In this document: positions 2,346-58,993 of the stretch, in pieces
How positions within the stretch are numbered: the first letter of the stretch is position 1
How the letters are laid out: each line of letters opens with the position of its first letter
Origin: Escherichia coli
GTDB taxonomy: Bacteria > Pseudomonadota > Gammaproteobacteria > Enterobacterales > Enterobacteriaceae
DNA: 64,000 bases
Assembly (NCBI RefSeq): GCF_009931435.1
Contig: NZ_CP043414.1
Reading direction: 5' to 3' (one strand)
Program-made: the position numbers and the translations under genes
The notes under the pieces: model-generated
What the model was told of the DNA's origin: nothing
The model's input: the letters and a program-made list of their open reading frames with translations, nothing else
Database searches by the model: none

Positions 2346-3261
2346 GAATCTTGACCTTTTTTGCTGTTATCGCCACTCCCTGCCGTGGAAGTCAGCTTAG
2401 AACAATGTACTCCCCCAGGACGGCGTTTTGAAGGTCTGCAGAATAAGATTTTGCCAGAGGGGAAGACTCGATTGTGCTGTTAATAACTTAATAATGGCAA
2501 AATAATGAGGTGTATATGCTTAGTAATTAATGTTATGTAGTGAATTGTTCTGATTCTTAATTGTGAGTGTGGTTTTTTTATCTGTAAGATAATTGTTTGA
2601 AAATGCCTCGTTTAAGAATTCACTAATGAATCGTGATGATGATATTTCCGCATTACGGAGAGTTTAACAGCGTGATGATTTCCGAGGTGTCGTAATGGGT
2701 GCAAGGTGTGAAACTATTGTTAAGCGGGATTAATGAATGAGGATGATGCTAATTAATTATTATTTAATATTCAAAAAGGTTTTGTTGTGCTTATTAATAA
2801 TAGAAGATTACTTTGCCTAACATAACATAACTTTGCATCAGATAATTCGCAATGACCCTTATAAATAAAAGGTTTTTGGGGTAAAATGCTCGCATAAATG
2901 ACGGATCCCTGCTCTTGATGCCGCCTCACCATTGCTGTTTGTACGTGTTCGCGTATGACCAGCGATGCTGCACGAGAGTGGAACAAGGACTCACATTTAC
3001 ATTTATACAAACACGCGCATGTCATAAATACAAAAGAGTGAGTAACTTAATAGATATGCGATTCCTGAAGATATATTCTGTGATCTACTTCAGGCATTAT
3101 AACGGAACAATGTGAGTCGCTTTTTTAGTGCAACTCATATGCATTTTTACTTTCGTCCGGGTTCCGGATGAAACTGCCAGGGAGGCACATTACAAATGGA
3201 ATTGCTTGTTTGTGTGTGCACAGCATTAACCAGCTCAGTACGAGCCGCCAGTAAGTGATAA

Positions 3262-4203
<942 letters not shown>

Positions 4204-9687: not shown

Positions 9688-9739
9688 CCGAATTTCGATT
9701 AACGCTCAGTCTCTGACTGAGAAAACTGGAAGCATGCTA

Positions 9740-14862: not shown

Positions 14863-16700
14863 ACATGCTTGCCTTAACCATTATTTTGCCATTGATTGGC
14901 TTCGTCTTGCTGGCGTTCTCCCGTGGGCGCTGGTCTGAAAATGTCTCGGCGATCGTGGGCGTAGGCTCTGTGGGCCTGGCGGCGCTGGTAACCGCCTTTA
15001 TCGGCGTTGACTTCTTCGCTAACGGCGAGCAGGCATACAGCCAGCCGCTGTGGACATGGATGTCGGTAGGCGACTTTAACATCGGTTTCAATCTGGTGCT
15101 GGACGGCCTGTCGCTGACCATGCTCTCGGTGGTCACCGGTGTCGGTTTCCTTATTCACATGTACGCCTCCTGGTATATGCGTGGTGAAGAGGGCTACTCT
15201 CGCTTCTTCGCCTACACCAACCTGTTCATCGCCAGCATGGTGGTTCTGGTTCTTGCCGACAACCTGCTGCTGATGTACCTCGGCTGGGAAGGCGTGGGCC
15301 TGTGCTCCTATCTGTTGATCGGTTTCTATTACACCGATCCGAAGAATGGCGCAGCGGCAATGAAAGCGTTTGTCGTGACCCGTGTGGGTGACGTGTTCCT
15401 CGCTTTCGCGCTGTTCATTCTCTACAACGAACTGGGCACCCTGAACTTCCGTGAAATGGTGGAACTGGCACCCGCGCACTTTGCTGACGGCAATAACATG
15501 CTGATGTGGGCGACGCTGATGCTGCTGGGCGGTGCGGTTGGTAAATCTGCGCAGCTACCGTTGCAGACATGGCTTGCCGACGCGATGGCTGGCCCGACAC
15601 CTGTCTCCGCGCTGATCCACGCCGCAACGATGGTAACCGCGGGTGTCTACCTGATCGCCCGTACCCACGGCCTGTTCCTGATGACACCAGAAGTTCTGCA
15701 TCTGGTGGGTATTGTCGGGGCAGTTACGCTGCTGCTGGCCGGTTTTGCCGCGCTGGTACAGACCGACATCAAACGTGTTCTCGCTTACTCCACCATGAGC
15801 CAGATTGGCTACATGTTCCTTGCGCTTGGCGTACAGGCATGGGATGCGGCGATTTTCCACTTGATGACCCACGCGTTCTTTAAAGCGCTGCTGTTCCTGG
15901 CATCCGGTTCCGTCATTCTGGCCTGCCATCACGAACAGAACATCTTCAAGATGGGCGGTCTGCGTAAATCTATTCCGCTGGTTTATCTCTGCTTCCTGGT
16001 GGGTGGTGCAGCACTGTCGGCACTGCCGCTGGTTACTGCGGGCTTCTTCAGTAAGGATGAGATCCTCGCTGGTGCGATGGCGAATGGTCATATCAATCTG
16101 ATGGTGGCAGGTCTGGTCGGTGCGTTTATGACCTCTCTCTACACCTTCCGTATGATTTTCATCGTCTTCCACGGGAAAGAACAAATTCACGCTCACGCCG
16201 TGAAAGGGATTACTCACAGCCTGCCGCTGATTGTGCTGCTGATCCTTTCCACCTTCGTTGGCGCACTGATTGTACCGCCGCTGCAGGGCGTGCTTCCGCA
16301 AACTACGGAACTGGCGCACGGCAGCATGTTGACCCTGGAAATTACCTCTGGCGTGGTCGCGGTGGTTGGTATTCTGCTGGCAGCCTGGCTGTGGCTGGGT
16401 AAACGTACTCTGGTGACCTCCATCGCCAACAGTGCGCCGGGCCGTCTGCTGGGTACCTGGTGGTACAACGCCTGGGGCTTTGACTGGCTGTACGACAAAG
16501 TGTTCGTCAAGCCGTTCCTGGGTATTGCCTGGTTGCTGAAACGCGATCCGCTGAACTCAATGATGAACATCCCGGCTGTCCTTTCCCGCTTTGCAGGTAA
16601 AGGTCTGCTGTTAAGCGAGAACGGTTATCTGCGCTGGTATGTGGCATCCATGAGCATCGGTGCGGTCGTGGTGCTGGCACTGTTGATGGTACTGCGTTGA
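14859..16700 (+). CDS. nuoL: NADH:quinone oxidoreductase subunit L (antiporter-like)
   Basis: 613 aa Mrp-antiporter-like membrane subunit. Confidence 0.93.
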
Positions 16701-16738
16701 GTTAAGGATTGTGGGCTTGCCCCTGGGCATATAAGAAC

Positions 16739-16776
16739 GTAGGTCGGATAAGCCGCCTTCGCGGCGCATCCGACAC
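16739..16776. repeat. REP (repetitive extragenic palindrome) element in the nuoL-nuoM spacer
   Basis: gtaggtcggataagccgccttcgcggcgcatccgacac matches the enterobacterial REP consensus (imperfect palindrome). Confidence 0.6.
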
Positions 16777-16865
16777 TACAACCACAATCCGAAGAGAATT
16801 TTCTGTCGTGAGAATTCGTTGAAAATCCGGTCCTGACGGGACTTTTACAAGGAATAAAGATCGCC

Positions 16866-18395
16866 ATGTTACTACCCTGGCTAATATTAATTCCCTTTAT
16901 CGGCGGCTTCCTGTGCTGGCAGACCGAACGCTTTGGCGTCAAGGTGCCGCGCTGGATCGCGCTGATCACCATGGGATTGACGCTGGCGCTGTCGCTGCAA
17001 CTGTGGTTGCAGGGCGGTTATTCACTGACGCAATCCGCCGGAATTCCGCAGTGGCAGTCTGAATTCGACATGCCGTGGATCCCGCGTTTTGGTATCTCTA
17101 TCCATCTCGCCATTGACGGGCTATCGCTGCTGATGGTCGTGCTGACCGGTCTGCTCGGTGTGCTGGCGGTACTCTGTTCGTGGAAAGAGATCGAAAAATA
17201 TCAGGGCTTCTTCCACCTCAACCTGATGTGGATCCTGGGCGGCGTTATCGGCGTGTTCCTTGCCATCGACATGTTCCTGTTCTTCTTCTTCTGGGAAATG
17301 ATGCTGGTGCCGATGTACTTCCTGATCGCACTGTGGGGGCATAAAGCCTCTGACGGTAAAACGCGTATCACGGCGGCAACCAAGTTCTTCATTTACACCC
17401 AGGCGAGTGGTCTGGTGATGCTGATCGCCATCCTGGCGCTGGTTTTTGTTCACTACAATGCGACTGGCGTCTGGACCTTCAACTATGAAGAGCTGCTGAA
17501 TACGCCAATGTCTAACGGCGTGGAATATTTGCTGATGCTGGGCTTCTTCATCGCATTTGCGGTGAAAATGCCGGTGGTTCCGCTGCATGGCTGGCTGCCG
17601 GATGCGCACTCCCAGGCTCCGACCGCCGGTTCCGTTGACCTCGCGGGGATCTTGCTGAAAACTGCCGCTTACGGTTTGCTGCGTTTCTCCCTGCCGCTGT
17701 TCCCGAACGCGTCGGCAGAGTTTGCACCAATCGCTATGTGGCTGGGTGTTATCGGCATCTTCTACGGTGCGTGGATGGCCTTCGCCCAGACCGATATCAA
17801 ACGTCTGATCGCCTACACCTCGGTTTCCCACATGGGCTTCGTGCTGATTGCTATCTACACCGGCAGCCAGTTAGCCTACCAGGGCGCGGTCATTCAGATG
17901 ATTGCTCACGGCTTGTCGGCGGCGGGTCTGTTTATTCTCTGCGGTCAGCTTTATGAGCGTATCCATACCCGCGATATGCGCATGATGGGCGGTCTGTGGA
18001 GCAAAATGAAATGGCTGCCAGCACTGTCACTGTTCTTTGCGGTGGCAACGCTTGGGATGCCGGGCACCGGTAACTTCGTCGGCGAATTTATGATTCTGTT
18101 CGGCAGCTTCCAGGTTGTCCCGGTGATTACCGTTATCTCTACCTTTGGGCTGGTCTTTGCATCTGTTTATTCGCTGGCGATGTTGCATCGCGCTTACTTC
18201 GGTAAAGCGAAAAGCCAGATTGCCAGCCAGGAACTGCCAGGGATGTCGCTGCGTGAGCTGTTTATGATCCTGTTGCTGGTGGTGCTGCTGGTACTGCTGG
18301 GCTTCTATCCGCAGCCGATTCTGGATACCTCGCACTCCGCGATTGGCAATATCCAGCAGTGGTTTGTTAATTCCGTTACTACTACAAGGCCGTAA
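16866..18395 (+). CDS. nuoM: NADH:quinone oxidoreductase subunit M (antiporter-like)
   Basis: 509 aa membrane protein. Confidence 0.93.
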   Translation: MLLPWLILIPFIGGFLCWQTERFGVKVPRWIALITMGLTLALSLQLWLQGGYSLTQSAGIPQWQSEFDMPWIPRFGISIHLAIDGLSLLMVVLTGLLGVLAVLCSWKEIEKYQGFFHLNLMWILGGVIGVFLAIDMFLFFFFWEMMLVPMYFLIALWGHKASDGKTRITAATKFFIYTQASGLVMLIAILALVFVHYNATGVWTFNYEELLNTPMSNGVEYLLMLGFFIAFAVKMPVVPLHGWLPDAHSQAPTAGSVDLAGILLKTAAYGLLRFSLPLFPNASAEFAPIAMWLGVIGIFYGAWMAFAQTDIKRLIAYTSVSHMGFVLIAIYTGSQLAYQGAVIQMIAHGLSAAGLFILCGQLYERIHTRDMRMMGGLWSKMKWLPALSLFFAVATLGMPGTGNFVGEFMILFGSFQVVPVITVISTFGLVFASVYSLAMLHRAYFGKAKSQIASQELPGMSLRELFMILLLVVLLVLLGFYPQPILDTSHSAIGNIQQWFVNSVTTTRP

Positions 18396-18401
18396 ATCGC
18401 C

Positions 18402-19859
18402 ATGACAATAACTCCACAAAACCTGATCGCACTGCTACCGTTGCTGATCGTCGGCTTGACGGTGGTGGTTGTGATGCTCTCCATTGCGTGGCGACGCAAT
18501 CATTTCCTCAACGCTACGATCTCGGTTATTGGGCTTAACGCGGCGCTGGTTTCGCTCTGGTTTGTCGGCCAGGCGGGCGCTATGGACGTTACGCCGCTGA
18601 TGCGCGTTGATGGTTTCGCCATGCTTTACACCGGGCTGGTATTGTTGGCGAGCCTCGCCACCTGTACTTTCGCCTACCCGTGGCTTGAAGGCTATAACGA
18701 CAACAAGGACGAGTTCTACCTGTTGGTGTTAATTGCCGCGCTGGGCGGGATCCTGCTGGCGAATGCCAACCATCTGGCGTCTCTGTTCCTCGGTATTGAA
18801 CTGATCTCTTTGCCGCTGTTTGGCCTGGTCGGTTACGCTTTCCGCCAGAAACGTTCGCTGGAAGCCAGTATCAAATACACTATCCTTTCTGCCGCAGCGT
18901 CTTCTTTCCTGCTGTTCGGTATGGCGCTGGTGTATGCGCAGTCTGGCGACCTGTCGTTTGTCGCGCTGGGTAAAAACCTCGGCGACGGTATGCTCAACGA
19001 GCCGCTGTTGCTGGCAGGTTTCGGCCTGATGATTGTTGGCCTTGGCTTCAAACTCTCTCTGGTGCCGTTCCACCTGTGGACGCCAGACGTATACCAGGGC
19101 GCGCCTGCGCCGGTTTCCACTTTCCTGGCGACGGCGAGCAAAATCGCTATCTTCGGCGTGGTGATGCGTCTGTTCCTTTACGCACCAGTGGGCGACAGCG
19201 AAGCGATTCGCGTGGTGCTGGCGATTATCGCCTTTGCCTCTATCATCTTCGGTAACCTGATGGCGCTGAGCCAGACCAATATCAAACGTCTGCTCGGTTA
19301 CTCATCTATCTCTCACCTCGGCTATCTGCTGGTGGCGCTGATTGCGCTGCAAACTGGCGAGATGTCGATGGAAGCGGTAGGGGTTTACCTGGCCGGTTAT
19401 CTGTTCAGCAGCCTCGGCGCGTTCGGCGTGGTCAGCCTGATGTCCAGCCCGTATCGTGGCCCGGATGCTGATTCCCTGTTCTCTTACCGCGGTCTGTTCT
19501 GGCATCGTCCGATCCTCGCGGCAGTGATGACGGTGATGATGCTGTCACTGGCGGGTATCCCAATGACGCTGGGCTTTATCGGTAAGTTCTATGTGCTGGC
19601 GGTCGGTGTCCAGGCACACTTGTGGTGGCTGGTGGGTGCGGTGGTTGTCGGTTCGGCAATCGGCCTCTACTACTACCTGCGCGTAGCGGTGAGCTTATAC
19701 CTGCACGCCCCGGAGCAACCGGGTCGCGACGCACCGTCAAACTGGCAGTACAGCGCGGGTGGTATCGTGGTGCTGATCTCTGCACTGTTGGTACTGGTGC
19801 TGGGTGTATGGCCGCAACCGCTGATTAGCATTGTGCGGTTAGCAATGCCGCTGATGTAA
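18402..19859 (+). CDS. nuoN: NADH:quinone oxidoreductase subunit N (antiporter-like)
   Basis: 485 aa membrane protein, last gene of the operon. Confidence 0.93.
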
Positions 19860-19882
19860 GCTGTCAGTTCGTAAGTCAGAAA

Positions 19883-19910
19883 GCCGCCGACAAGTTCGGC
19901 GGTTTTTTTT
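19883..19910 (+). terminator. Rho-independent terminator of the nuo operon
   Basis: Stem ccgccga / tcggcgg with a 5-nt loop followed by 8 T, 24 nt after the nuoN stop. Confidence 0.75.
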
Positions 19911-19926
19911 GGTGCCCTGACCCCCA

Positions 19927-20430
19927 TCACCCAACAATAACCGTCAGCGCATGATTCCCTTGCCGCAGCATACGTCGATACGCGCTAATCAGCTTTTCCA
20001 TATCGAGCATGATCGAAGCAAAGAGTTGCCCCTCTAACTCTTCTGAAAAGGTTACTCCCGGATAAATCTCCATTTCATTGAGTCGTTTAATGGAAAACTG
20101 TTTACGCAGCACATTTCGGTCAAGAGCTTCCAGTCGGTCGATTGTCGCGGCTAACTCCTGATTCCAGGTCAATCCCAGGAATCCATCTATGCCATCTTCG
20201 AGGCTGTGTTCACCAAGCACGGCACGACTCAGCGGATCATTCTTCGCGGGATCAAAAGCAGAGGTGCCTGTCAGCCCAAAGTGTAAAAAATCCCAGCGTT
20301 TATCAATATCCAGTCGGCGTAATCCTGAAAGCGTGTCATGTATATTATCCATCAAAGGTTTTTGAGTAGACTCAAGAAGTTGGTTAATCTTTTCTGAGTC
20401 AATTTCTGCAAAATAGCCAATCATTCCCAT
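19927..20430 (-). CDS. yfbM: DUF1877-family protein YfbM
   Basis: 167 aa ORF with ATG start; recognised as YfbM; convergent with nuoN. Confidence 0.85.
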   Translation of the reverse strand: MGMIGYFAEIDSEKINQLLESTQKPLMDNIHDTLSGLRRLDIDKRWDFLHFGLTGTSAFDPAKNDPLSRAVLGEHSLEDGIDGFLGLTWNQELAATIDRLEALDRNVLRKQFSIKRLNEMEIYPGVTFSEELEGQLFASIMLDMEKLISAYRRMLRQGNHALTVIVG

Positions 20431-20532
20431 TTTATTTTCCTCCGTTGAATTTCATGTTTCGCATCTTAAAACAGACGAGGGAAAATAAAATGTACATGTC
20501 GCTTTTTCTGGACCCGCCTCGAGAAATTTTTA

Positions 20533-21504
20533 TTATTTACTGTTGTATAACAAAGTTATAACCCCATCCACTACCTGAGCCATTTTCTGATAATTCAATC
20601 TGTCTGCGGTATCACCGGGCAAGTGGTATTGTTTATTACGATAAAAAGCGGTGTCGGTAATCATTACGGCGGGAATATCGTGTTGCCAATAATTAAGGTG
20701 ATCAGAGAAATCAATACCGGGAATAAACCCTGGGGCATTCATAGAATAAACAGATAAATCCTGAGATGACAACAATGCCGCTTTTAGCTGACGAACGGCG
20801 TTGATATCCTGCATTCTGCCGACCACGGCAATAAAGTCTCCCCGATCGGGATAAAGCCAGGACATTGCCGGGTAAGGGTAATCCTGACTACCAGGCGCAG
20901 AGTCGTAATAGCCAATCATCTCCAGCGCTATCATTAATCTAACTGGACGCTCAAGCGAAGCTGCATGTACCGCGCTCCCCATTTCATCGCTACGAAAGAA
21001 GGGCGGTTCTTCCGACGCATAGGCGACCAGCTGCACGCCAGTTTTCGGTGCTTGCTGCTGTAACAAACGTGCCAGTTCGAGTAATCCTGCCACGCCGCTG
21101 GCGTTATCATCCGCGCCCGGCGTATAGGTCAATTGATCGTTTTCATAACTGCTGACAGAATCATAGTGCGCACCAATAATAATCAGCGGTCCATCGGCAG
21201 GACCATAATCAGCAACAATGTTTTTGTAGGGACCTCCCGTAATGGGGACGTCCTGCGCGGTAACGCTGGCACCGCTACTGATAAAGACCTCTTTTATATA
21301 TTCTGCGGACCTTTTCAGATTATCAATATTGTCGGCACTACGGGGATGCACAGTTTGTGTAAGATAACGAACTGTTTTTTCTAATTGCTCAGGACTTGTG
21401 TGTCGGGGCGTTGGCGGTAATGCATTGACCCAGGGTTGGTAAAAAATAATCAGAGGGAGTGAAAACAGAATTAATATAATAAAAGCAAAGTTTATTTTTT
21501 TCAT
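20533..21504 (-). CDS. yfbL: M28-family aminopeptidase-like protein YfbL, signal peptide present
   Basis: 323 aa from the ATG at 21504 (the ORF-track start at 21510 is a TTG); N-terminal hydrophobic signal; metallopeptidase M28 hallmarks (HYDS ... DDNASG ... EE). Confidence 0.85.
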   Translation of the reverse strand: MKKINFAFIILILFSLPLIIFYQPWVNALPPTPRHTSPEQLEKTVRYLTQTVHPRSADNIDNLKRSAEYIKEVFISSGASVTAQDVPITGGPYKNIVADYGPADGPLIIIGAHYDSVSSYENDQLTYTPGADDNASGVAGLLELARLLQQQAPKTGVQLVAYASEEPPFFRSDEMGSAVHAASLERPVRLMIALEMIGYYDSAPGSQDYPYPAMSWLYPDRGDFIAVVGRMQDINAVRQLKAALLSSQDLSVYSMNAPGFIPGIDFSDHLNYWQHDIPAVMITDTAFYRNKQYHLPGDTADRLNYQKMAQVVDGVITLLYNSK

Positions 21505-21641
21505 ATGCAAATTATTAATGGGTTGCGTTATTGAATCATTATTTGTTATAGGTTTCGATATTGTATTTTATTAAGATTAGCAGGATTATACAAAGAGTAT
21601 ATTTTATGTCTGGTGCCTGAGTTTATTTAAAAGGATTTTAT

Positions 21642-23369
21642 ATGCGAAATAAAAATATAATCATGTTGCTTATGAGTAGTTTGATTTTGTCAGGATGTGG
21701 GCCGGAACCTGAGAATAAGGAAAGTCAGCAACAACAACCCAGTACTCCAACAGAGCAGCAAGTGCTTGCCGCGCAGCAAGCTGCAATAAAAGAGGCTGAG
21801 CAAAGCGCCGCCGCCGCGAAAGTCTTGGCCCAGCAAGAAGTGCAACAATATTCAGACAAACAGGCTTTACAGGGGCGATTGCAGGAAGCGCCAACATTTG
21901 CAAGAGCGGCTAAAGCAAAAGCTACACATGTCGCAAATCCAGGAACCGCTCGCTATCAGCAGTTCGATGATAATCCGGTTAAGCAGGTAGCGCAAAATCC
22001 GTTGGCGACGTTTAGTCTTGACGTTGACACTGGCAGTTATGCGAATGTACGGCGTTTCCTCAATCAAGGGCTGTTACCTCCGCCAGACGCTGTGCGGGTG
22101 GAGGAGATAGTCAATTATTTCCCGTCTGATTGGGATATCAAAGACAAACAATCTATTCCGGCCTCTAAGCCAATACCTTTCGCTATGCGCTACGAATTGG
22201 CACCTGCGCCATGGAATGAACAGCGAACATTGCTGAAAGTTGATATCCTGGCGAAAGATCGCAAAAGTGAAGAGTTACCAGCTTCTAATCTGGTCTTTCT
22301 TATCGACACTTCTGGTTCAATGATTTCTGATGAACGTTTGCCACTTATCCAGTCTTCGTTGAAATTATTGGTCAAAGAACTTCGTGAGCAGGATAACATT
22401 GCTATCGTGACCTACGCTGGCGACTCCCGTATTGCATTGCCTTCTATCTCCGGGAGTCATAAGGCGGAAATTAATGCCGCAATTGATTCGCTGGATGCCG
22501 AAGGCAGTACCAATGGCGGTGCCGGGCTGGAACTGGCTTATCAGCAGGCGGCGAAGGGGTTTATTAAGGGCGGTATCAATCGCATTTTATTGGCCACTGA
22601 CGGTGACTTTAACGTTGGTATTGACGATCCAAAATCGATTGAATCAATGGTCAAAAAACAGCGGGAGTCCGGTGTTACTCTGTCGACGTTTGGCGTGGGG
22701 GATGACAATTACAACGAGGCAATGATGGTGCGAATTGCCGATGTTGGCAACGGTAACTACAGCTACATTGATACCCTCTCTGAAGCGCAGAAAGTATTGA
22801 ACAGTGAAATGCGGCAGACGTTGATTACCGTAGCAAAAGATGTCAAAGCGCAAATTGAGTTTAACCCCGCGTGGGTAACGGAATACCGTCAGATTGGTTA
22901 TGAAAAGCGCCAACTTCGGGCGGAAGATTTTAATAACGACAACGTTGATGCGGGGGATATTGGCGCAGGCAAACATATAACGTTGTTATTTGAATTAACG
23001 CTGAACGGGCAAAAAGCATCAATTGATAAGTTACGCTATGCCCCGGATAACAAATCAGCGAAATCGGACAAAACGAAAGAACTGGCCTGGTTAAAAATTC
23101 GCTGGAAATACCCGCAGGGAAAAGAAAGTCAGTTAGTTGAATTCCCGCTGGGGCCAATAATAAACGCGCCCTCTGAAGATATGCGTTTTCGCGCAGCAGT
23201 AGCTGCATATGGGCAAAAGTTACGCGGTTCTGAATACCTGGACGAAATCTCATGGCAGCAGATAAAACAGTGGGCTCAGCAGGCAAAAGGGGAAGATCCA
23301 CAGGGTTACAGGGCGGAATTTATTCGCCTGGTTGAACTGGCGGATGGGGTGACTGGCATCAGTCCGTGA
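21642..23369 (+). CDS. yfbK: von Willebrand factor type A (vWA) domain lipoprotein YfbK
   Basis: 575 aa; lipobox LILSGC at the N-terminus; vWA MIDAS motif DTSGSM; AAGGA RBS upstream. Confidence 0.85.
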   Translation: MRNKNIIMLLMSSLILSGCGPEPENKESQQQQPSTPTEQQVLAAQQAAIKEAEQSAAAAKVLAQQEVQQYSDKQALQGRLQEAPTFARAAKAKATHVANPGTARYQQFDDNPVKQVAQNPLATFSLDVDTGSYANVRRFLNQGLLPPPDAVRVEEIVNYFPSDWDIKDKQSIPASKPIPFAMRYELAPAPWNEQRTLLKVDILAKDRKSEELPASNLVFLIDTSGSMISDERLPLIQSSLKLLVKELREQDNIAIVTYAGDSRIALPSISGSHKAEINAAIDSLDAEGSTNGGAGLELAYQQAAKGFIKGGINRILLATDGDFNVGIDDPKSIESMVKKQRESGVTLSTFGVGDDNYNEAMMVRIADVGNGNYSYIDTLSEAQKVLNSEMRQTLITVAKDVKAQIEFNPAWVTEYRQIGYEKRQLRAEDFNNDNVDAGDIGAGKHITLLFELTLNGQKASIDKLRYAPDNKSAKSDKTKELAWLKIRWKYPQGKESQLVEFPLGPIINAPSEDMRFRAAVAAYGQKLRGSEYLDEISWQQIKQWAQQAKGEDPQGYRAEFIRLVELADGVTGISP

Positions 23370-23395
23370 TGACTTTTTAGCAAACTATGTTCGAT

Positions 23396-23417
23396 CAGTC
23401 AGCATATTTGCTGACTG
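23396..23417. terminator. Hairpin between convergent yfbK and elaD (possible bidirectional terminator)
   Basis: Inverted repeat cagtcagca / tgctgactg with a 4-nt loop. Confidence 0.45.
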
Positions 23418-23439
23418 GTCGAATTGACTAACAATGATG

Positions 23440-24654
23440 TTAACTTACTCTTTTGCCTGATGCTCTATTTTGGGGTTGTGAGTGTTTTATTTCTAAGTCT
23501 CTATAATAATCATTGATATTTGCATCGCCATATTTATCTAAATAACAATTTCTGTTTACCTGTCGATGTTGAAAATCAATTTCGTACTGCTCTTCTGCTG
23601 AATATTTTTTAAATCTGTCAGCATAGTTTTTTAATAACGTATAGGGAGCGCTGTCAGAATTGCTTTCCCTTTGTTCAATTACTTCTTTGGCTGCCATGCA
23701 CACAAATGCACCGCAACTTTGGCTTAAGTATTGCTGAAGATCGGCATGTAAAAATGTTATCTCTTGTTCAGTTAAATGATCTGTTATATTCTTATTATTC
23801 GGCATTTCCCCCATGAATTTAGAATTGAAACTATTAATGACACGCTTAAGTGAATTTTCTTTATCATGGCCTAGTGCACGTAATGAGTTGAATATGACGC
23901 ATTTTATTTGTTGTGTGTTATTTTTTTCATTAACTATTTTTTGTAGCGAAACTAATATCCAGTGTCCGCCAGTATTTATGGGGAATAACTGGACTTCTTT
24001 CGGCCATGATGGATCGCTCTTAATATTATCATTGAGAGCGATTTCCAGGTAAGTGCTGTTGGAATCGGGGAGGTAGAGACCAGTAGGATAATTGACTTGA
24101 GTATTTTTTGCATTAGCGGCGATCTTCTGAAGATAGCAATCTATTTCATCCGTGGTTAATTGACGATTTTTATCCCAGAAGTTTGTACCATCGCTCAGTT
24201 CATTATTCTTATCATTTAAAAGTACCTTTGAAAGCGACTGTTTTTCTGATATGAGAGGAATGTCCTCACCGATAATTGTCATTAATTTCGAAGGGGAGAA
24301 TAGTTTTTTGAACAGGAGATTATCTGAATTATGTGATTTGAGGGGGTGTTTGGTTGCGGTATGTGCCAAATTATATAATTTTAAACAGGCATTTTTTATA
24401 AGCTTGATAATCGATAGGGTATCATTTGTTGGGTTTCTAACAATATGGTAAAGAATATCTTCAGCTTTTTTTCCAAATTCATCATAACCTAACGCAATAT
24501 TATGCAGTAACTCAATGCTTTCTTCATCTCCGGATAACGCTGTTTTTTTTAAAGACTGCAGTAATTCCTCGGTCACAGTAAATTTTTCTGCAAATGTCTG
24601 ACAGAGTTGGGTTTGAGATAATTGACAATAATTGCTGACAACTGTAACCATCAT
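23440..24654 (-). CDS. elaD: ElaD, CE-clan cysteine protease with deubiquitinase activity
   Basis: 404 aa ORF in a markedly AT-rich stretch; recognised as E. coli ElaD (..[16 protein letters not shown].. catalytic His region). Confidence 0.85.
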
Positions 24655-24840
24655 AGGCTCCTTTTAGTTGCAAAGATTGTGCTGAATGAAGATAAAAAGA
24701 GGCAACTTATTGCTCTGAATATAGTGCGTGCGGAGATGAATAAATATCAAAAATCGCTCAATATGCCCGTGTGGGTGGATATATGTGGCGCGGGTTGCGA
24801 TAACAGGGCAAGTTTCGCCCTGTTTTAGTAGGAAGCAGAG

Positions 24841-25758
24841 TTAAACGTTAAACACGGTGAAATCATGCGCCAGTTCAGTCGCCGGGAAAATTGACCTGCA
24901 TTCACGTAACAGGTGCTGACAACCTTTGTCATCATAGCGCGAGCTGACGTGGGTAATGATTAGCTTACCGACTCCAGCCTCACGGGCCAGTGTCGCAGCC
25001 TGGCGTGTAGAGCTATGACCGCGACTATTGGCTTTGGCTTCCATGGTTATATCCAGCGTCGCTTCGTGCACCATGACATCGACACCTTTAGCCAGGTCAA
25101 GTGCGGCATCGCAGGGGCCGGTATCGCCGAAAATAGCGAGCGCTTTACCTGGCACTGGAGCAGCTAAGTAATCTGCGCCGTTAATCTGCCTTCCATCTTC
25201 CAGCGTGATTGTTTTGCCCGCTTTTAATTCCTGAAACAGTGGGCCAGGCGGCACGCCAGCAGCTTTTAATGCCTGGGCATTTAATGCACCCGGTTTATCA
25301 TGTTCTTCAATACGATAGCCATAACATTCCAGTGGGTGTACCAGCGGATAAGCGGTTACTTTGCGCAGGCCATCATCGAAAATTTCGCCAGCGCCAATTT
25401 CGACAATTTCCAGCGGATAATCGGTCCATGAGCCGCTAATCCGCAGCGCAGTCTCCACAAATTCACGGAGACCTTGCGGACCATAAATCGTTAAGGGTTG
25501 GACAATACCAGACATAGAACGACTGCACAGCAAGCCGGGTAAACCAAAGAGATGATCGCCATGAAGATGGCTGATAAAAATCTTGTCCAGTTTTCCAGGG
25601 TTAAAGGCGGTATGCAGTAGCTGATGCTGGGTGCCTTCACCGCAGTCAAACAACCAAAGCCCGCTCTGGGTCGGATGTTGCAGGTTAAGCAATATTGCCG
25701 TGACATTGCGCGTACGGGTTGGCACACCGGCTGAAGTACCTAAAAAAATTAATTCCAT
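24841..25758 (-). CDS. rbn: RNase BN / RNase Z (metallo-beta-lactamase fold)
   Basis: 305 aa from [13 protein letters not shown]; HxHxDH motif (HLHGDHLFG); the ORF-track start lies 6 codons upstream. Confidence 0.88.
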
Positions 25759-25822
25759 GAGTTCATCACGTTTCAAAAAATATTCCGGCTAGTATAAGGC
25801 ATACATCTAAAAGGAGAGCATT

Positions 25823-26284
25823 ATGATTGAATGGCAAGATCTGCATCACTCTGAATTATCGGTTTCCCAGCTTTATGCCTTATTACAACTGCGTTGCGCG
25901 GTTTTTGTTGTTGAGCAGAATTGCCCTTATCAGGATATCGATGGTGATGATTTGACGGGGGATAATCGCCATATTCTCGGTTGGAAAAATGATGAACTGG
26001 TGGCGTATGCGAGGATTCTGAAAAGTGATGATGATCTTGAGCCGGTCGTTATAGGTCGGGTGATTGTCAGTGAAGCGTTGCGTGGCGAAAAAGTGGGGCA
26101 GCAGCTGATGAGTAAAACACTCGAAACATGTACGCGTCACTGGCCTGATAAACCTGTTTACCTCGGGGCGCAGGCGCATCTGCAAAACTTCTACCAAAGT
26201 TTTGGCTTTATCCCTGTGACGGAGGTCTATGAAGAAGATGGTATCCCACACATTGGGATGGCACGCGAGGTAATTCAGGCGTAA
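25823..26284 (+). CDS. elaA: GNAT-family acetyltransferase ElaA
   Basis: 153 aa; AAGGAG RBS; divergent from rbn. Confidence 0.88.
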   Translation: MIEWQDLHHSELSVSQLYALLQLRCAVFVVEQNCPYQDIDGDDLTGDNRHILGWKNDELVAYARILKSDDDLEPVVIGRVIVSEALRGEKVGQQLMSKTLETCTRHWPDKPVYLGAQAHLQNFYQSFGFIPVTEVYEEDGIPHIGMAREVIQA

Positions 26285-26338
26285 TCAATAACCATTGTCT
26301 ATAGTTAGTGACAGGTTTTACGCAAATGGAGAACGAGA

Positions 26339-26644
26339 ATGTCTAATCAGTTTGGTGATACACGTATCGATGACGACCTGACGCTGCTTAGTGAAACACT
26401 GGAAGAGGTGCTCCGCTCCTCTGGCGATCCCGCCGATCAGAAATATGTTGAGCTGAAAGCGCGTGCAGAAAAAGCGCTGGATGATGTGAAAAAACGGGTT
26501 AGCCAGGCTTCAGACAGTTATTACTATCGGGCGAAGCAGGCTGTTTATCGTGCTGATGACTACGTCCACGAAAAACCCTGGCAAGGAATTGGGGTGGGCG
26601 CGGCCGTTGGGCTGGTATTAGGACTGTTGCTGGCACGCCGTTAA
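26339..26644 (+). CDS. elaB: Ribosome/membrane-associated DUF883 protein ElaB
   Basis: 101 aa with C-terminal hydrophobic tail (GVGAAVGLVLGLLLARR). Confidence 0.88.
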   Translation: MSNQFGDTRIDDDLTLLSETLEEVLRSSGDPADQKYVELKARAEKALDDVKKRVSQASDSYYYRAKQAVYRADDYVHEKPWQGIGVGAAVGLVLGLLLARR

Positions 26645-26657
26645 AACCTCCCTACAC

Positions 26658-26688
26658 CGGGGTACTGCATTTTTTTTGTAGTACCCCG
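26658..26688 (+). terminator. Hairpin downstream of elaB with a T-run in the loop
   Basis: cggggtact ... agtaccccg inverted repeat; overlaps a candidate menF -10 (tataat at 26689-26694). Confidence 0.4.
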
Positions 26689-26722
26689 TATAATGTGAGG
26701 CTTTTAACAGGGAGAGGTCCGC

Positions 26723-28021
26723 GTGCAATCACTCACTACGGCGCTGGAAAATCTACTGCGCCTTTTGTCGCAAGAGATTCCAGCGACACCCGGCATTCGG
26801 GTTATTGATACTCCTTTCCCTCTCAAAGATGCTTTTGATGCCTTGAGCTGGCTGGCCAGTCAGCAAACGTATCCGCAATTCTACTGGCAACAACGTAATG
26901 GTGATGAAGAAGCTGCCGTCCTGGGCGCGATTACCCATTTTACCTCGTTGGACCAGGCGCAACGTTTTCTTCACCAGCACCCGGAACATGCCGACTTACG
27001 CATCTGGGGGCTGAATGCGTTTGACCCGTCGCAGGGCAATTTACTTTTACCCCGCCTGGAATGGCGACGCTGTGGCGGTAAAGCCACGCTGCGGCTGACG
27101 CTATTCAGCGAAAGCTCCCTTCAGCACGATGCGATAAAGGCAAAAGAATTTATCGCCACACTGGTGAGTATCAAGTCCCTGCCAGGGTTACATTTAACCA
27201 CCACGCGAGAACAACACTGGCCGGACAAAACGGGCTGGACGCGATTAATCGAACTGGCAACGCAAACTATCGCCGAAGGTGAACTCGACAAAGTCGTTCT
27301 TGCACGGGCGACCGATCTGCATTTTGCAAGCCCGGTTAACGCAGCGGCGATGATGGCAGCCAGCCGTCGGCTCAATCTGAACTGCTATCATTTCTTTATG
27401 GCCTTTGATGGCGAGACCGCGTTTCTGGGTTCGTCTCCTGAGCGGCTATGGCGGCGGCGTGCCAAAGCGCTGCGTACTGAAGCGCTGGCGGGAACGGTAG
27501 CAAATCATCCTGATGATAAGCAGGCGCAGCAGTTGGGCGAGTGGCTGATGGCGGATGATAAAAACCAGCGCGAGAACATGCTGGTGGTGGAAGATATTTG
27601 CCAACGATTGCAGGCCGATACCCAGACGCTGGATGTTTTACCGCCGCAGGTACTGCGTCTGCGTAAAGTGCAGCATCTGCGCCGCTGTATCTGGACTTCA
27701 CTCAACAAAGCGGATGATGTGATCTGTTTACATCAGTTGCAGCCAACGGCCGCGGTTGCGGGCTTACCGCGTGACCTGGCGCGGCAGTTTATCGCCCGTC
27801 ACGAACCGTTCACCCGTGAATGGTATGCCGGTTCCGCGGGCTATCTTTCGTTACAACAAAGCGAATTCTGCGTTTCCCTGCGCTCAGCAAAAATTAGCGG
27901 CAATGTCGTGCGGTTATATGCTGGCGCGGGCATTGTCCGTGGCTCCGACCCCGAGCAAGAGTGGCAGGAAATCGACAACAAAGCGGCAGGGCTGCGTACT
28001 TTATTACAAATGGAAGAGTAA
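26723..28021 (+). CDS. menF: Isochorismate synthase MenF
   Basis: 431 aa; GTG start; chorismate-binding fold; first gene of the menaquinone cluster. Confidence 0.88.
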
Positions 28022-28106
28022 TGAGTCGCATCATTACCGATTCATATCAATAATCTATTTTTGTAGCTCCTTATACTTAGCCGCAATATTGATACCGGAC
28101 AAACTC

Positions 28107-29777
28107 ATGTCAGTAAGCGCATTTAACCGACGCTGGGCGGCGGTCATTCTGGAAGCATTAACGCGTCACGGCGTCAGACACATCTGTATCGCCCCTGGCT
28201 CGCGTTCTACACCGTTAACGTTAGCGGCAGCGGAGAATTCCGCATTCATTCACCACACCCATTTTGATGAGCGTGGACTGGGGCATCTGGCGCTGGGGCT
28301 GGCGAAAGTCAGCAAGCAGCCGGTGGCGGTGATAGTGACCTCCGGCACGGCGGTAGCAAATCTCTATCCGGCACTAATAGAAGCTGGGTTAACCGGAGAA
28401 AAACTGATCCTGTTAACCGCCGATCGCCCGCCGGAGCTCATTGACTGCGGCGCGAATCAGGCGATTCGTCAGCCGGGAATGTTCGCCTCTCATCCTACGC
28501 ATAGCATTTCACTGCCGCGCCCGACGCAGGATATTTCTGCCCGTTGGCTGGTCTCTACTATCGACCACGCCCTTGGTACGCTTCATGCTGGAGGAGTTCA
28601 TATCAACTGCCCGTTTGCTGAACCGCTATATGGCGAGATGGACGACACCGGGCTTAGTTGGCAACAGCGTCTTGGCGACTGGTGGCAGGACGATAAACCG
28701 TGGCTGCGTGAAGCGCCTCGTCTGGAAAGTGAAAAACAGCGTGACTGGTTCTTCTGGCGACAAAAGCGCGGCGTGGTAGTTGCTGGTCGCATGAGTGCGG
28801 AAGAGGGCAAAAAAGTTGCTCTGTGGGCGCAAACTCTTGGCTGGCCGCTGATTGGCGACGTCCTGTCGCAAACCGGACAGCCGCTGCCGTGTGCCGATCT
28901 CTGGTTAGGCAATGCCAAAGCGACAAGCGAACTGCAACAGGCGCAGATTGTGGTGCAACTGGGCAGCAGCCTGACGGGCAAACGGCTCCTGCAATGGCAG
29001 GCAAGCTGTGAACCAGAAGAGTACTGGATTGTTGATGACATTGAAGGGCGACTTGATCCGGCACACCATCGCGGACGCCGCTTAATTGCCAATATTGCCG
29101 ACTGGCTGGAGCTGCATCCGGCAGAAAAACGCCAGCCCTGGTGCGTTGAAATCCCGCGCCTGGCGGAACAGGCAATGCAGGCGGTTATTGCCCGTCGCGA
29201 TGCGTTTGGCGAAGCGCAACTGGCGCATCGCATCAGCGACTATTTGCCGGAACAGGGGCAACTGTTTGTTGGCAACAGCCTGGTGGTACGTCTGATTGAT
29301 GCGCTTTCGCAACTTCCGGCGGGTTACCCGGTGTATAGCAACCGTGGGGCCAGCGGTATTGACGGGCTGCTATCTACTGCCGCAGGCGTTCAGCGGGCCA
29401 GTGGCAAACCGACGCTGGCGATTGTGGGCGATCTCTCAGCACTTTACGATCTCAACGCGCTGGCGCTATTGCGCCAGGTTTCCGCGCCGCTGGTATTAAT
29501 TGTGGTGAACAACAACGGCGGGCAAATTTTCTCGCTGCTGCCGACACCGAAAAGCGAGCGTGAGCGTTTCTATCTGATGCCGCAAAACGTCCATTTTGAG
29601 CACGCCGCCGCGATGTTCGAGCTGAAATATCATCGTCCGCAAAACTGGCAGGAACTTGAAACGGCACTTGCCGACGCCTGGCGCACGCCGACCACCACGG
29701 TAATTGAAATGGTGGTTAATGACACCGATGGTGCGCAAACCCTCCAGCAACTGCTGGCGCAGGTAAGCCATTTATGA
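28107..29777 (+). CDS. menD: SEPHCHC synthase MenD (ThDP-dependent)
   Basis: 556 aa from [13 protein letters not shown]; the longer ORF in the track (from 27756) would overlap menF in another frame. Confidence 0.88.
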
Positions 29778-30532
29778 TCCTGCACGCGCAGGCAAAACAC
29801 GGCAAACCAGGTTTACCCTGGCTGGTGTTTTTGCACGGTTTTTCCGGCGATTGCCAGGAATGGCAAGAAGTGGGCGAGGCGTTTGCCGACTACTCGCGGT
29901 TGTATGTTGATCTCCCTGGTCACGGTGGTTCGGCAGCAATTAGCGTCGATGGATTTGATGATGTCACCGGCTTACTGCGTAAAACTCTGGTTAGTTACAA
30001 CATCCTTAACTTCTGGCTGGTGGGGTACTCGCTCGGCGGACGGGTGGCGATGATGGCGGCTTGCCAGGGGATGGCGGGGCTTTGTGGCGTGATTGTCGAA
30101 GGTGGGCATCCCGGGCTGCAAAGTGCTGAACAACGCACGGAACGTCTGCTTTCCGATCGCCAATGGGCGCAGCGTTTTCGCACAGAACCATTAACGGCGG
30201 TATTTGCCGACTGGTATCAACAGCCTGTCTTTGCCTCGCTCAATGACGATCAACGCCGGGAGCTGGTGGCGCTGCGTAGCCACAATAACGGTGTAACGCT
30301 TGCTACTATGCTGGAGGCCACTTCTCTCGCCGTCCAGCCTGATTTACGTGCTAACCTTAGCGCCCGCACATTTGCGTTTTATTATTTATGTGGTGAACGT
30401 GACAGCAAATTCCGCGCTCTGGCGGCGGAACTGGCTGCCGACTGCCATGTCATTCCTCGCGCCGGACATAACGCGCACCGGGAAAATCCCGCTGGCGTAA
30501 TCGCAAGTCTGGCGCAGATCTTGCGTTTCTGA
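29774..30532 (+). CDS. menH: SHCHC synthase MenH (alpha/beta hydrolase)
   Basis: 252 aa; GYSLGG nucleophile elbow; ATGA overlap with menD. Confidence 0.88.
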
Positions 30533-30546
30533 CTAAAGGACACAAT

Positions 30547-31404
30547 ATGATTTATCCTGATGAAGCAATGCTTTACGCACCGGTTGAATGGCACGACTGC
30601 TCCGAAGGTTTCGAGGACATTCGTTATGAAAAATCCACCGACGGTATCGCAAAAATCACCATTAATCGTCCGCAGGTGCGCAATGCCTTCCGTCCACTGA
30701 CGGTCAAAGAGATGATCCAGGCACTGGCAGATGCGCGTTATGACGACAACATCGGCGTGATCATTCTGACTGGTGCAGGCGATAAAGCGTTCTGCTCTGG
30801 TGGCGACCAGAAAGTGCGTGGCGATTACGGCGGCTATAAAGATGATTCCGGCGTACATCATCTGAATGTGCTGGACTTCCAGCGTCAGATCCGTACCTGT
30901 CCGAAACCGGTTGTCGCGATGGTAGCGGGTTACTCCATCGGCGGCGGTCACGTTCTGCACATGATGTGCGACCTGACCATCGCGGCGGAAAACGCCATCT
31001 TCGGTCAGACTGGCCCGAAAGTCGGTTCCTTCGATGGCGGCTGGGGCGCTTCCTATATGGCGCGCATTGTTGGGCAGAAAAAAGCGCGTGAAATCTGGTT
31101 CCTGTGCCGTCAGTACGACGCGAAACAAGCGCTGGATATGGGCCTTGTGAACACCGTGGTGCCGCTGGCAGATCTGGAAAAAGAAACCGTGCGTTGGTGC
31201 CGCGAAATGCTGCAAAACAGCCCGATGGCGCTGCGTTGCCTGAAAGCTGCGCTGAACGCTGACTGTGACGGTCAGGCGGGTCTGCAGGAACTGGCGGGCA
31301 ACGCCACCATGCTGTTCTACATGACGGAAGAAGGTCAGGAAGGTCGCAACGCCTTCAACCAGAAACGTCAGCCTGACTTCAGCAAATTTAAACGGAATCC
31401 GTAA
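30547..31404 (+). CDS. menB: 1,4-dihydroxy-2-naphthoyl-CoA synthase MenB (crotonase fold)
   Basis: 285 aa, enoyl-CoA hydratase/isomerase family. Confidence 0.9.
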
Positions 31405-32366
31405 TGCGTAGCGCGCAGGTATACCGCTGGCAGATCCCCATGGACGCGGGGGTGGTTCTGCGCGACAGGCGGTTAAAAACCCGCGACGGGCTATACGTTT
31501 GCCTGCGCGAGGGCGAGCGCGAAGGGTGGGGAGAGATCTCCCCACTGCCGGGCTTCAGTCAGGAAACCTGGGAAGAGGCGCAAAGTGCGCTGCTTGCCTG
31601 GGTAAATAACTGGCTGGCAGGCGATTGCGAATTACCGCAAATGCCTTCCGTCGCCTTTGGCGTAAGCTGTGCATTGGCTGAGCTGGCAGACACGTTACCA
31701 CAGGCGGCAAATTTCCGTGCTGCACCGTTGTGTAATGGTGATCCTGACGATCTGATCCTCAAACTTGCCGATATGCCAGGCGAGAAAGTGGCGAAGGTCA
31801 AAGTGGGATTGTACGAAGCGGTGCGCGACGGCATGGTGGTGAATCTGTTGCTGGAGGCCATTCCGGATCTGCATTTGCGTCTTGACGCGAATCGCGCCTG
31901 GACACCGCTGAAAGGCCAGCAGTTTGCCAAATACGTTAACCCGGATTATCGCCACCGCATCGCGTTTCTCGAAGAACCGTGCAAAACCCGCGAGGATTCC
32001 CGCGCCTTTGCCCGTGAAACGGGTATTGCCATTGCCTGGGATGAAAGCCTGCGTGAGCCGGATTTTGCCTTTGTGGCGGAAGAAGGCGTGCGAGCGGTGG
32101 TGATCAAACCCACGCTCACGGGCAGCCTGGAGAAAGTGCGCGAGCAGGTGCAGGCGGCGCACGTGCTGGGGCTGACGGCGGTGATCAGTTCATCTATTGA
32201 GTCGAGCTTAGGCTTAACGCAACTGGCGCGGATTGCCGCCTGGTTAACGCCAGACACTATCCCGGGGCTGGACACGCTGGATCTGATGCAGGCGCAGCAG
32301 GTTCGTCGCTGGCCGGGTAGCACGCTGCCTTTTGTCGACGTTGATGCACTGGAGCGGTTGTTATGA
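31404..32366 (+). CDS. menC: o-succinylbenzoate synthase MenC (enolase superfamily)
   Basis: 320 aa; start overlaps the menB stop by 1 nt. Confidence 0.9.
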
Positions 32367-49364: not shown

Positions 49365-50267
49365 TTAGTGGTTATTGGCTGCAAGATCGGCTTCGCTTAG
49401 CTGGATGGCTGCGAGCACCTGGTCACGATCAATGCCCTGTTCCAGCATGCGCAAGGCAATTTTAATGGCTTGTTCATGCATGCCTTCCTGCCAGCCAATT
49501 TGATGCCCTTCCTGCCGTAGCCGTTCAGCAATAGTCATCAATCTCTCCTTTTGTAGTGGTGAACGTTCGGCAATCTCCTCAATAAAACGGGTGAAACGGG
49601 AGGTATCGCCGCATTGCAGCAGATAATTAAACAGCGTTTGTAGCTGGCTGTCATTAGTGAAGCCTCTAACCAAAAGCGTGGTGATCCTGTCGACCATACC
49701 GATTAAATCGCGGTCGCGAATATGCTTTTGAATCAGTTCCAGCAGAGCTATACGCCGATGTTGCATGATCTCATCGTCAGGCACGATGGTGATATCCACC
49801 AACGGAAAAGCTTCGGTGTACAACTGCCGGGCAAGTTGCGGATCATCAAACTCATCCAGCCAGTTAAGTGAGTATGGGTAGGGCGAGGTTTCGCCGTGAT
49901 AAAACAGCAACGGCACCACCAGAGGGACTCTGTCATAGCCTTTGTCCAGGTGACGCTGCATGGCGGCGGTGGCATAGCGCATTAGCCGAAAAGCCATATT
50001 CTTTTCTGCGGAACTTTGATGTTCAATCACGCAGTAGATATAGCCGTCACCATCGCTGGTTTCCACCGACCACAAAACATCCGAGTAGTAAGCGCGTAAA
50101 CTTTTTTCAATAAAGCTGGTGGGTTCCAGGCGTAAGGTTTGCAGGTTGCAAAGTTTACGCAGTGGCTCCGGTAGATGTATTTCGAGAAAATCCCGCGCGG
50201 TTTCGGGCGAGAACATAAAGGTTTTAAACACCGCATCATGCGGGGAGGAGGTTGTTGATTCGGTCAT
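49365..50267 (-). CDS. rpnB: Rpn-family recombination-promoting nuclease (YhgA-like, transposase_31 / PD-(D/E)XK)
   Basis: 300 aa; recognised as YfaD/RpnB ([33 protein letters not shown]...). Confidence 0.8.
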
Positions 50268-58528: not shown

Positions 58529-58993
58529 AAATGATTCCTTGTAGTGTGAGTTAACAAGATACAATTTAATCTTTGCAGAATATATTCACTATCAAATTTA
58601 GCTCATTTTATTACGAAGACCTTTACGCATGTTAGAAAGTATCATTATTGTTAATAAATACGGTAATAAGTAACAAACAGATATTGATAACTTCCCTGAC
58701 AAGTTATTAGGTATCCCACTTGAAGATTGAGAATGGCTCCAGAGTAGACTGTGTACTGTTCGCCGGAGTGTCATTACTCTCAACAATCGGTTTTGACAGT
58801 GAGTCGGGCGCTTCATACCGGTTTCTACCTGGAGTCATTGTCACTTCCCTAATCTGGATAAATATTTATCGCTAATTCACAAAGTGGACCAAAATCAGGT
58901 GAAAACGAATTATTACGCATGGTAAAGACTACAGGCCAACTAAGTGTGGCGAATCAGACAATCTTACATTTGTCATCAATCTCATGTCTCACA

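Follow-up and report, generated by a model that had tools for sequence, protein, structure and literature searches.

The elaD locus of Escherichia coli: an intact deubiquitinase gene in an AT-rich segment of probable recombinational origin

How a gene for a protease of eukaryotic type came to lie among core genes of Escherichia coli, and whether strains without it have lost it or never had it, are the questions raised by the elaD locus. The DNA considered here, called the window in the following, is a stretch of 64,000 nucleotides from the E. coli contig NZ_CP043414.1 (assembly GCF_009931435.1), in which elaD occupies positions 23440-24654 on the minus strand, between yfbK and rbn. An initial annotation, made from the letters of the sequence, had described elaD as far more AT-rich than these neighbours and had proposed an old horizontal acquisition. 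The account which is very probably correct as a whole is that elaD, the known gene of a CE-clan deubiquitinase, is represented in the window by an intact allele, that it lies on a foreign segment of 1.5 kb present in E. coli other than phylogroup B2, and that this segment most likely entered by homologous recombination.

Limits, composition and surroundings of the segment

Comparison by BLAST with the B2 strain ExPEC XM (ExPEC, extraintestinal pathogenic E. coli) gave breakpoints on both sides of the gene: homology stops at 23342/23343 and restarts at 24838, which delimits an islet of 1,495 bp (23343-24837) with a G+C content (GC) of 0.363. It is faced in B2 by about 144 bp without similarity to the islet (25 of 200 shuffled sequences scored as well). 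The left edge falls within the last 5-9 codons of yfbK, and the C-terminus of YfbK differs between the two haplotypes; on the right, 3 bp separate the edge from the stop codon of rbn. Besides the yfbK tail, elaD and its promoter spacer, the islet contains a hairpin between the convergent genes and another one after rbn. elaD is its sole open reading frame (ORF) with family support.

The GC of elaD is 0.347 (0.427, 0.304 and 0.311 at first, second and third codon positions, i.e., GC1, GC2 and GC3), compared with 0.476 for yfbK (21642-23369, plus strand; GC3 0.467) and 0.506 for rbn (24841-25776, minus strand; GC3 0.471). The norm of the window, from 53 long ORFs, is 0.515 ± 0.049 for GC and 0.555 ± 0.090 for GC3. 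Composition differs significantly from that of the flanks (elaD versus yfbK and rbn together: chi-square 65.3, p 6.5e-16; third codon positions alone, p 1.5e-7), and just 1.4% of the 1215-bp windows across the 64 kb are as AT-rich. In synonymous codon usage elaD is the most deviant of 31 genes of the window (Kullback-Leibler divergence 0.275; median 0.075), and the amino acid composition of its product is shifted, with 34% of the residues F, Y, M, I, N or K and 14% G, A, R or P. Along the profile GC drops from 0.55 to 0.30 over 23280-23520 and recovers over 24700-24950. The contrast which the initial annotation had drawn is therefore borne out by GC (34.7% against 48-51%) as well as codon usage.

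AT-rich DNA was also seen elsewhere in the window. An ORF of 368 amino acids between glpQ and inaA (57458-58564, minus strand), annotated as hypothetical protein, has a GC of 0.322 and ranks second in deviance of codon usage; it gave no Pfam, NCBIfam or PADLOC match, and of 5,426 complete E. coli genomes just 1,044 contain its region. The third region with 1215-bp windows at 40% GC or less is 2424-3649, between an ORF ending at 2345 and an ORF starting at 3265.

The surroundings are core chromosome, with the gene order nuoC-N, yfbM, yfbL, yfbK, elaD, rbn, elaA, elaB and menFDHBCE. No tRNA gene lies within 15000-32000, no integrase or insertion sequence (IS) element was found around elaD, and flanking repeats were short ones at chance level. 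The islet is thus not a classical genomic island or integrative element, since it has no integrase or transposase, no tRNA or att site and no flanking direct repeats, and the chromosomal context of non-pathogenic type claimed beforehand was encountered. The defence models of PADLOC gave no match for ElaD, YfbK, Rbn or ElaA.

A hairpin on one side of elaD and a spacer of 186 bp on the other had also been described, and both are present. The hairpin (23389-23424) has a perfect 16-bp stem and lies between the convergent yfbK and elaD genes, where it is probably a transcript-end structure shared by both; its free energy is -28.3 kcal/mol (z -5.2 on the plus and -4.7 on the minus strand), and none of 200 shuffled sequences was as stable. 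A terminator scan did not call it, and no T-tract follows it. The spacer between rbn and elaD (24655-24840, minus strand; exactly 186 bp) probably contains the elaD promoter; a Shine-Dalgarno sequence, AGGAG, is found at 24658-24662 before the start codon, and in K-12 a peak of the RpoD "constitutive promoter" type was obtained in the rbn>elaD spacer by genomic SELEX, i.e., systematic evolution of ligands by exponential enrichment (PMC3946193). A second hairpin, absent from the initial annotation, is located just after the stop codon of rbn and inside the islet (24802-24824, minus strand; -16.7 kcal/mol, z -4.0 on the minus strand) and is probably the rbn terminator. The Rfam scan yielded a chance-level match only, and the resemblance of a hairpin in the spacer of E. 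albertii to that of the window was weak (6 of 300 shuffles equally good). elaD would be transcribed alone, from the 186-bp spacer downstream of rbn, and its transcription would end at the 16-bp-stem hairpin in common with yfbK; hairpin and spacer are most simply regarded as ordinary transcript-end and promoter regions, not as scars of mobility.

The genes to the left of elaD vary among strains. In the window nuoN is followed directly by yfbM (19860-19926), where K-12-like strains have yfbP, yfbO and yfbN (about 2.5 kb); in E. fergusonii and at the locus L020 yfbM is preceded by a different pair of genes, both unannotated. yfbK, which encodes a protein with a von Willebrand factor A domain, and yfbL are missing, either deleted or not called, from many E. 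coli with elaD (L001, L004, L012, L014, L017-L019), as was seen with ten further loci fetched via ElaB; in L001 yfbK is reduced to stitched remnants. The stretch yfbL-yfbK-elaD as a whole is prone to decay, and the Gln-rich region at the 5' end of yfbK (21700-21990) is hypervariable, with 77-83% identity to B2.

The ElaD protein and its probable activity

The ORF at 23440-24654 is uninterrupted and encodes 404 amino acids plus a stop. Its product is 100% identical to WP_105287761.1 and to cluster P0001, "ElaD/SseL family deubiquitinase [Escherichia]". Matches were obtained with the Pfam families PF22103 (E 1e-47), PF22102 (E 4e-28) and PF02902 (Peptidase_C48; E 3e-26). The NCBIfam ElaD/SseL equivalog NF008812 was passed with 429.3 bits (cut-off 250), whereas the SseL equivalog NF011421 was failed with 113 bits (cut-off 624). 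Residues 30-138 (24241-24567, minus strand) form the N-terminal helical ElaD/SseL domain of PF22103; it is modelled as helical with a predicted local distance difference test (pLDDT) value of about 80-92 and aligns to the N-domain of SseL, where the counterpart is a VHS-like ubiquitin-binding and localisation domain (PMC4961225). Residues 158-364 (23563-24183, minus strand) form the C-terminal Ulp1-like catalytic domain of the CE clan, as recognised by PF22102, PF02902 and a Foldseek match to 5ubw.

The catalytic residues were read from the codons (all on the minus strand) and compared in a family alignment of ElaD and 26 members, i.e., 27 sequences, with identities down to 20%. His231 (23962-23964), Gln307 of the oxyanion hole (23734-23736) and the catalytic Cys314 (23713-23715) are invariant; the hallmark Trp232 (23959-23961), directly after His231, is conserved in at least 90%; and Asn256 (23887-23889), the third residue of the triad, is inside the conserved motif F255-N256-S257. 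The third position is Asn or Asp across the family, and in the CE clan Asp, Asn or Glu are allowed (PMC1847702). Due to one extra residue upstream of the catalytic Cys, compared with K-12-type alleles, Cys314 corresponds to C313 in the published numbering; the C313S mutant of ElaD is inactive (PMC1847702). No disruption of the catalytic residues was found. To judge from its sequence, the elaD product is a papain-like cysteine protease of the CE clan and of MEROPS C48-like type, which is in keeping with its earlier designation as a deubiquitinase-like cysteine protease.

The AlphaFold model of ElaD has a pLDDT of 80.4, and its first 16 residues are disordered. Foldseek aligned it with full-length SseL, 5haf (E 1e-20; template modelling (TM) score 0.72), and with the catalytic domain of SseL, 5ubw (TM 0.89; root mean square deviation 2.6-2.8); more distant matches were OtDUB, CidB, the poxvirus protease I7L and SENPs. 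By sequence, too, the nearest solved structure is SseL (5HAF, E 1e-26), and a sequence search of solved structures turned up no entry under the name ElaD. Compared with SseL-type proteins, ElaD has an insertion of about 20 residues near 277-297, which is poorly modelled, and a helical extension at the C-terminus, about 40 residues long.

Labelling with a ubiquitin probe and cleavage of the fluorogenic substrate Ub-AMC have been shown for ElaD (PMC1847702), and the enzyme is ubiquitin-specific (PMC4961225), in both cases for alleles 94-95% identical to that of the window; a preference for K63 is stated in the abstract of a 2026 preprint. By analogy with these alleles, the ElaD of the window would be a ubiquitin isopeptidase: His231, Asn256 and Cys314, together with Gln307, would cut the isopeptide bond after the C-terminal Gly-Gly of ubiquitin, and the N-terminal domain would, as its homology to SseL suggests, bind ubiquitin and localise the enzyme. 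ElaD may be delivered into host cells. No experiment on its secretion or translocation into host cells was found in the literature examined, and the disordered first 16 residues fit a secretion signal but prove nothing.

The ratio of non-synonymous to synonymous substitutions (dN/dS), between the window and a K-12-like strain, is 0.47 for elaD, the highest of the neighbourhood (0.01-0.35 for the neighbours). Ten sampled E. coli loci contained full-length elaD DNA, two of them with a frameshift or stop and one truncated; at an eleventh a deletion remnant of 111 bp was left. In a published survey premature stops amounted to 16.6% (PMC12575377). High dN/dS and frequent pseudogenes indicate, as far as sequences tell, weak constraint or some diversifying selection, two causes which are not separable here.

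Such figures raise the question whether elaD in this strain is a silent relic, without present function but not yet removed, and repressed by H-NS as AT-rich DNA. This is rather unlikely. Weak constraint and frequent natural knock-outs would agree with it, as would a 64-kb window without any gene of a type III secretion system (T3SS) and the lack of a described delivery route in the literature examined. However, 404 codons have remained intact in an AT-rich, stop-prone sequence, all catalytic residues are kept and dN/dS is still below 1; furthermore, a strong Shine-Dalgarno sequence is present, and the K-12 spacer has a binding peak of the sigma-70 holoenzyme which is not marked as H-NS associated in the respective table (PMC3946193). 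A statement about H-NS binding at elaD was not found in the literature examined.

A functional ElaD need not be a conventional T3SS effector. It could perhaps, although this is quite doubtful, reach ubiquitin by another route (vesicles, lysis inside phagocytes, protist grazers), or act on a ubiquitin-like conjugate which is not of host origin. The idea was suggested by the entry of elaD alone, without secretion genes, by its intact state in spite of weak constraint, by the lack of an injection system nearby and by the lack of relatives between 34 and 89% identity; our own evidence is neutral on this point, neither for nor against.

Gain or loss at the yfbK-rbn junction

The islet, counted as at least 80% of 23300-24900, is present in 4,197 of 5,426 complete E. 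coli genomes. The B2-type empty junction is present in 915, 914 of these at 99% identity or more and with the type strain ATCC 11775 included. The rest include secondary deletions, e.g., in FY10, where a 111-bp remnant of elaD lies beside a deletion of yfbK, and in TUM17668, which shows an IS-mediated deletion of elaD. Presence across E. coli is thus patchy, and the genome counts as well as the decay figures given above agree with the published survey, in which elaD was found in 353 of 530 strains and in none of B2 (PMC12575377).

The state of the junction in relatives was obtained by walking public assemblies to the orthologous yfbK-rbn junction. In Salmonella (L022-L025) and in E. fergusonii (L031/L032) the order is yfbK-cheV-rbn, with cheV oriented as elaD. 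E. albertii has yfbK-rbn with a 115-bp spacer of its own, E. marmotae (L028) has yfbK-rbn with a spacer of 121 bp, E. coli B2 the same order with 120 bp, and E. coli outside B2 (the window, K-12) has elaD between the two genes. The CheV of this slot (corresponding to 23370-24840 of the window) consists of a CheW and a receiver domain (327-333 amino acids; GC 0.47-0.52). It is absent from the slot in E. coli, E. albertii and E. marmotae, and no cheV remnants were detected in the islet of the window or in the B2 filler by blastn or tblastn. L028 was assigned to E. marmotae by the names of other members of its ElaA cluster, and its housekeeping genes are 85-94% identical to those of all three E. 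coli compared; two ElaA outliers labelled E. coli (L026, L027) were dropped as error-ridden assemblies. L028 and B2 agree at 91.7% in the spacer and at 91% in the adjacent yfbK, and the YfbK tail ...GLDNSQN* is common to both. Since E. marmotae has the spacer and the YfbK tail of B2, the empty B2-type junction appears to be ancestral and elaD a derived insertion. In a comparison with Salmonella only, the YfbK tail of the window had seemed nearer to the outgroup, which was reversed after adding E. marmotae, E. albertii and E. fergusonii.

elaD therefore combines the traits of horizontally acquired DNA: its composition is deviant, its distribution is patchy, and relatives have the orthologous site empty. 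The acquisition proposed in the initial annotation is upheld, and beyond composition it now includes the empty junction of B2 and E. marmotae, an E. albertii without elaD and the presence of cheV in E. fergusonii and Salmonella. The sequence comparison supports a derived insertion in non-B2 E. coli, as opposed to a loss in B2, which is the published reading (PMC12575377). That B2 never had elaD and keeps the ancestral empty site reverses this reading; it is better supported, although of smaller novelty, than a route of ElaD outside T3SS.

The published reading assumes an elaD-positive common ancestor of all E. coli and a subsequent loss of the gene in phylogroup B2. Such a history is very unlikely, although records of ElaD include a cryptic clade-I strain and most phylogroups, and independent secondary deletions of elaD do exist (FY10, TUM17668). 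B2 contains no remnant of elaD, and its filler of 144 bp has no relation to the islet; the E. marmotae locus has the same filler and YfbK tail, at an identity (91.7%) which is at the level of the adjoining yfbK (91%); E. albertii is also without elaD; and an ancestral spacer cannot be recreated by deletion. A native origin, in which a decaying gene of weak expression became AT-rich under relaxed selection and a mutational bias towards AT, is hardly credible, since the dN/dS of 0.47, the frequent pseudogenes (also PMC12575377) and the AT-rich intergenic flanks which might be cited for it are outweighed by an orthologous slot without elaD in all outgroup species examined, by GC1 and GC2 (0.43 and 0.30) far under the norm of the window (about 0.59 and 0.41), by the shift towards F, Y, M, I, N and K (34%) and away from G, A, R and P (14%), by a synonymous divergence (dS) not above that of nuo genes, and by homologues in other hosts with the same AT offset.

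The derived insertion of elaD is also reflected in its flanks. To the left and right of the islet the elaD haplotype departs from B2 and E. marmotae over about 250 bp, and the identity between window and B2 goes down to 0.87-0.88 beside the islet. At the 3' end of yfbK (23088-23342) the identity of E. marmotae to B2 exceeds that to the window or K-12 by 5 points, and at the 3' end of rbn (24838-25037) E. marmotae has an identity of 0.90 to B2 compared with 0.85 to the window. The ends of yfbK and rbn probably served for homologous recombination with a relative already carrying elaD, which would explain its entry. Between the window and the K-12-like strain dS is 0.10 for elaD and 0.10 for nuoM/N; the islet is thus as old as the split between the window lineage and K-12. 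The "old" acquisition of the initial annotation can be refined accordingly to a time after the separation of E. coli from E. marmotae and E. albertii. The ancestral Escherichia would have had the order yfbK, short spacer, rbn; the 1.5-kb AT-rich segment would then have taken the place of this spacer and of the final codons of yfbK in an ancestor of the E. coli outside B2, most likely by homologous recombination through the yfbK and rbn ends with an unsampled donor which had elaD already in this slot; since then the segment would have been weakly constrained and often inactivated.

Several points weigh against this account. The polarity is derived from one locus per outgroup species, and from none of E. 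ruysiae, E. whittamii or cryptic clade I. The clade-I strain TW15838 is listed with ElaD, so that a single gain after the split of B2 needs later recombinational spread, or else clade I is not strictly outside. The spacer of E. albertii is unrelated to that of B2 and E. marmotae, which means that the slot was turned over more than once. The signal of derived flanks is small, 3-5 points of identity over about 250 bp, and could stem from reduced recombination next to an insertion or deletion instead. Finally, a consensus scan called no canonical promoter (no strong -35/-10) or terminator in the spacers, and the roles assigned above to promoter and terminator are to be taken as probable ones.

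A HMMER search over 1.84 billion representative proteins gave 83 matches; ElaD of Escherichia is at least about 89% identical to the query, all others at most 34%, with distant relatives named from Providencia and Plesiomonas. Since no relative lies between about 89 and 34%, the donor is unsampled and cannot be named. A phage collection contained no relative of ElaD. In a plasmid collection six Escherichia matches were either records of Mb size, evidently chromosomes, or large entries labelled "plasmid" (126 kb to 1.4 Mb) and of uncertain status, and three Salmonella matches were sseL. Two scans of species-representative genomes, with ElaD and with an alignment of ElaD alleles, found no relative, but exact peptide words are needed in these scans and the absence is indicative only; the E. 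coli entry among these representatives is apparently the B2-type type strain. Three distant homologues are AT-rich relative to the flanks in their own hosts, sseL with a GC of 0.38 versus 0.55 and the others with 0.41 versus 0.51 and 0.33 versus 0.39. Among complete RefSeq E. coli genomes the best identity was 98.9% for nuoG (9734-12466 in the window), and the best match of the elaD region was 98.7%; the window lineage is E. coli-like, poorly represented among complete genomes and mosaic relative to them.

Signs of recombination were also noticed to the right of elaD. elaA (25638-26337) exists as two deeply diverged alleles, with 77-85% DNA and 87% protein identity between window or K-12 and B2. 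Since E. marmotae is 0.90-0.95 identical to B2 and 0.76-0.85 to the window, the K-12-type elaA looks like an imported allele; its patch is about 600 bp away from the islet, with ordinary rbn sequence between them. The men operon (26723-32200, menF-menC) is 95.5-99.2% identical to that of E. fergusonii L031 and 94-96% to those of K-12 and B2, whereas the adjoining rbn-elaA-elaB is 76-84% identical to E. fergusonii L031, a contrast which points to a break of inter-species recombination between elaB and menF. The men alleles of the window are also found in strain 2020CK-00188 (L001) and in L020.

Comparison with known systems

Publications of 2007, 2016 and 2025 (PMC1847702, PMC4961225, PMC12575377) already cover the gene, the activity of its product as a deubiquitinase, its absence from ExPEC and B2 and the idea of a horizontal origin. 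The exact limits of the islet, the ancestral empty junction in B2 and E. marmotae, the cheV slot and the signs of recombinational entry are added here and were not found in the literature searched; literature on elaD together with H-NS or yfbK contained nothing on the history of the locus. The lack of ElaD in ExPEC of phylogroup B2 would be primitive and not due to an adaptive loss, which is of modest weight for comparisons between pathotypes.

The closest system is ElaD of K-12 and O157:H7 (b2269; Catic et al. 2007, PMC1847702), which shares the yfbK-rbn locus, the architecture and the catalytic Cys and is 94.2% identical to the window allele in DNA and about 95% in protein. The allele of the window, with 404 amino acids, differs from the K-12 type by one extra residue in the loop at 285-290 and by scattered substitutions.

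SseL of Salmonella enterica, an effector of the T3SS of Salmonella pathogenicity island 2 (5HAF, 5UBW), has the same arrangement of a VHS-like N-domain and a CE-clan catalytic domain with the same catalytic residues, and both sseL and elaD are AT-rich islets in a chromosome of normal GC. The identity of the two proteins is, however, only 26-30%, with ElaD under the SseL equivalog cut-off, and delivery by a T3SS has been demonstrated for SseL only. The genes are not syntenic: sseL is located between glpC and yfaU, about 25 kb off in terms of the window. That position in the window holds a transposase-like gene of the yfaD-type ISNCY/Rpn family (49365-50267, minus strand); elaD and sseL have thus entered related chromosomes at separate sites, with about 25 kb between them.

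With the wider CE clan, i.e., Ulp1 and SENPs as well as ChlaDUB1, OtDUB, CidB, XopD and RickCE, ElaD shares the papain-like fold of Ulp1, the His-Asp/Asn-Cys triad, the Gln of the oxyanion hole and a Trp next to the catalytic His. Identities are 11-16% and Foldseek E values 1e-5 to 1e-3, and the other deubiquitinases and SENPs of the clan differ from ElaD in accessory domains and substrate preferences (PMC4961225). ElaD represents an orphan lineage. The elaD islet differs from other single-gene AT-rich islets acquired by homologous recombination in that no donor can be named. In other respects it resembles these islets: deviant composition, patchy distribution and an empty ancestral site in relatives occur together, without an integrase, a tRNA gene or a flanking repeat, and the adjoining core sequence is more divergent.

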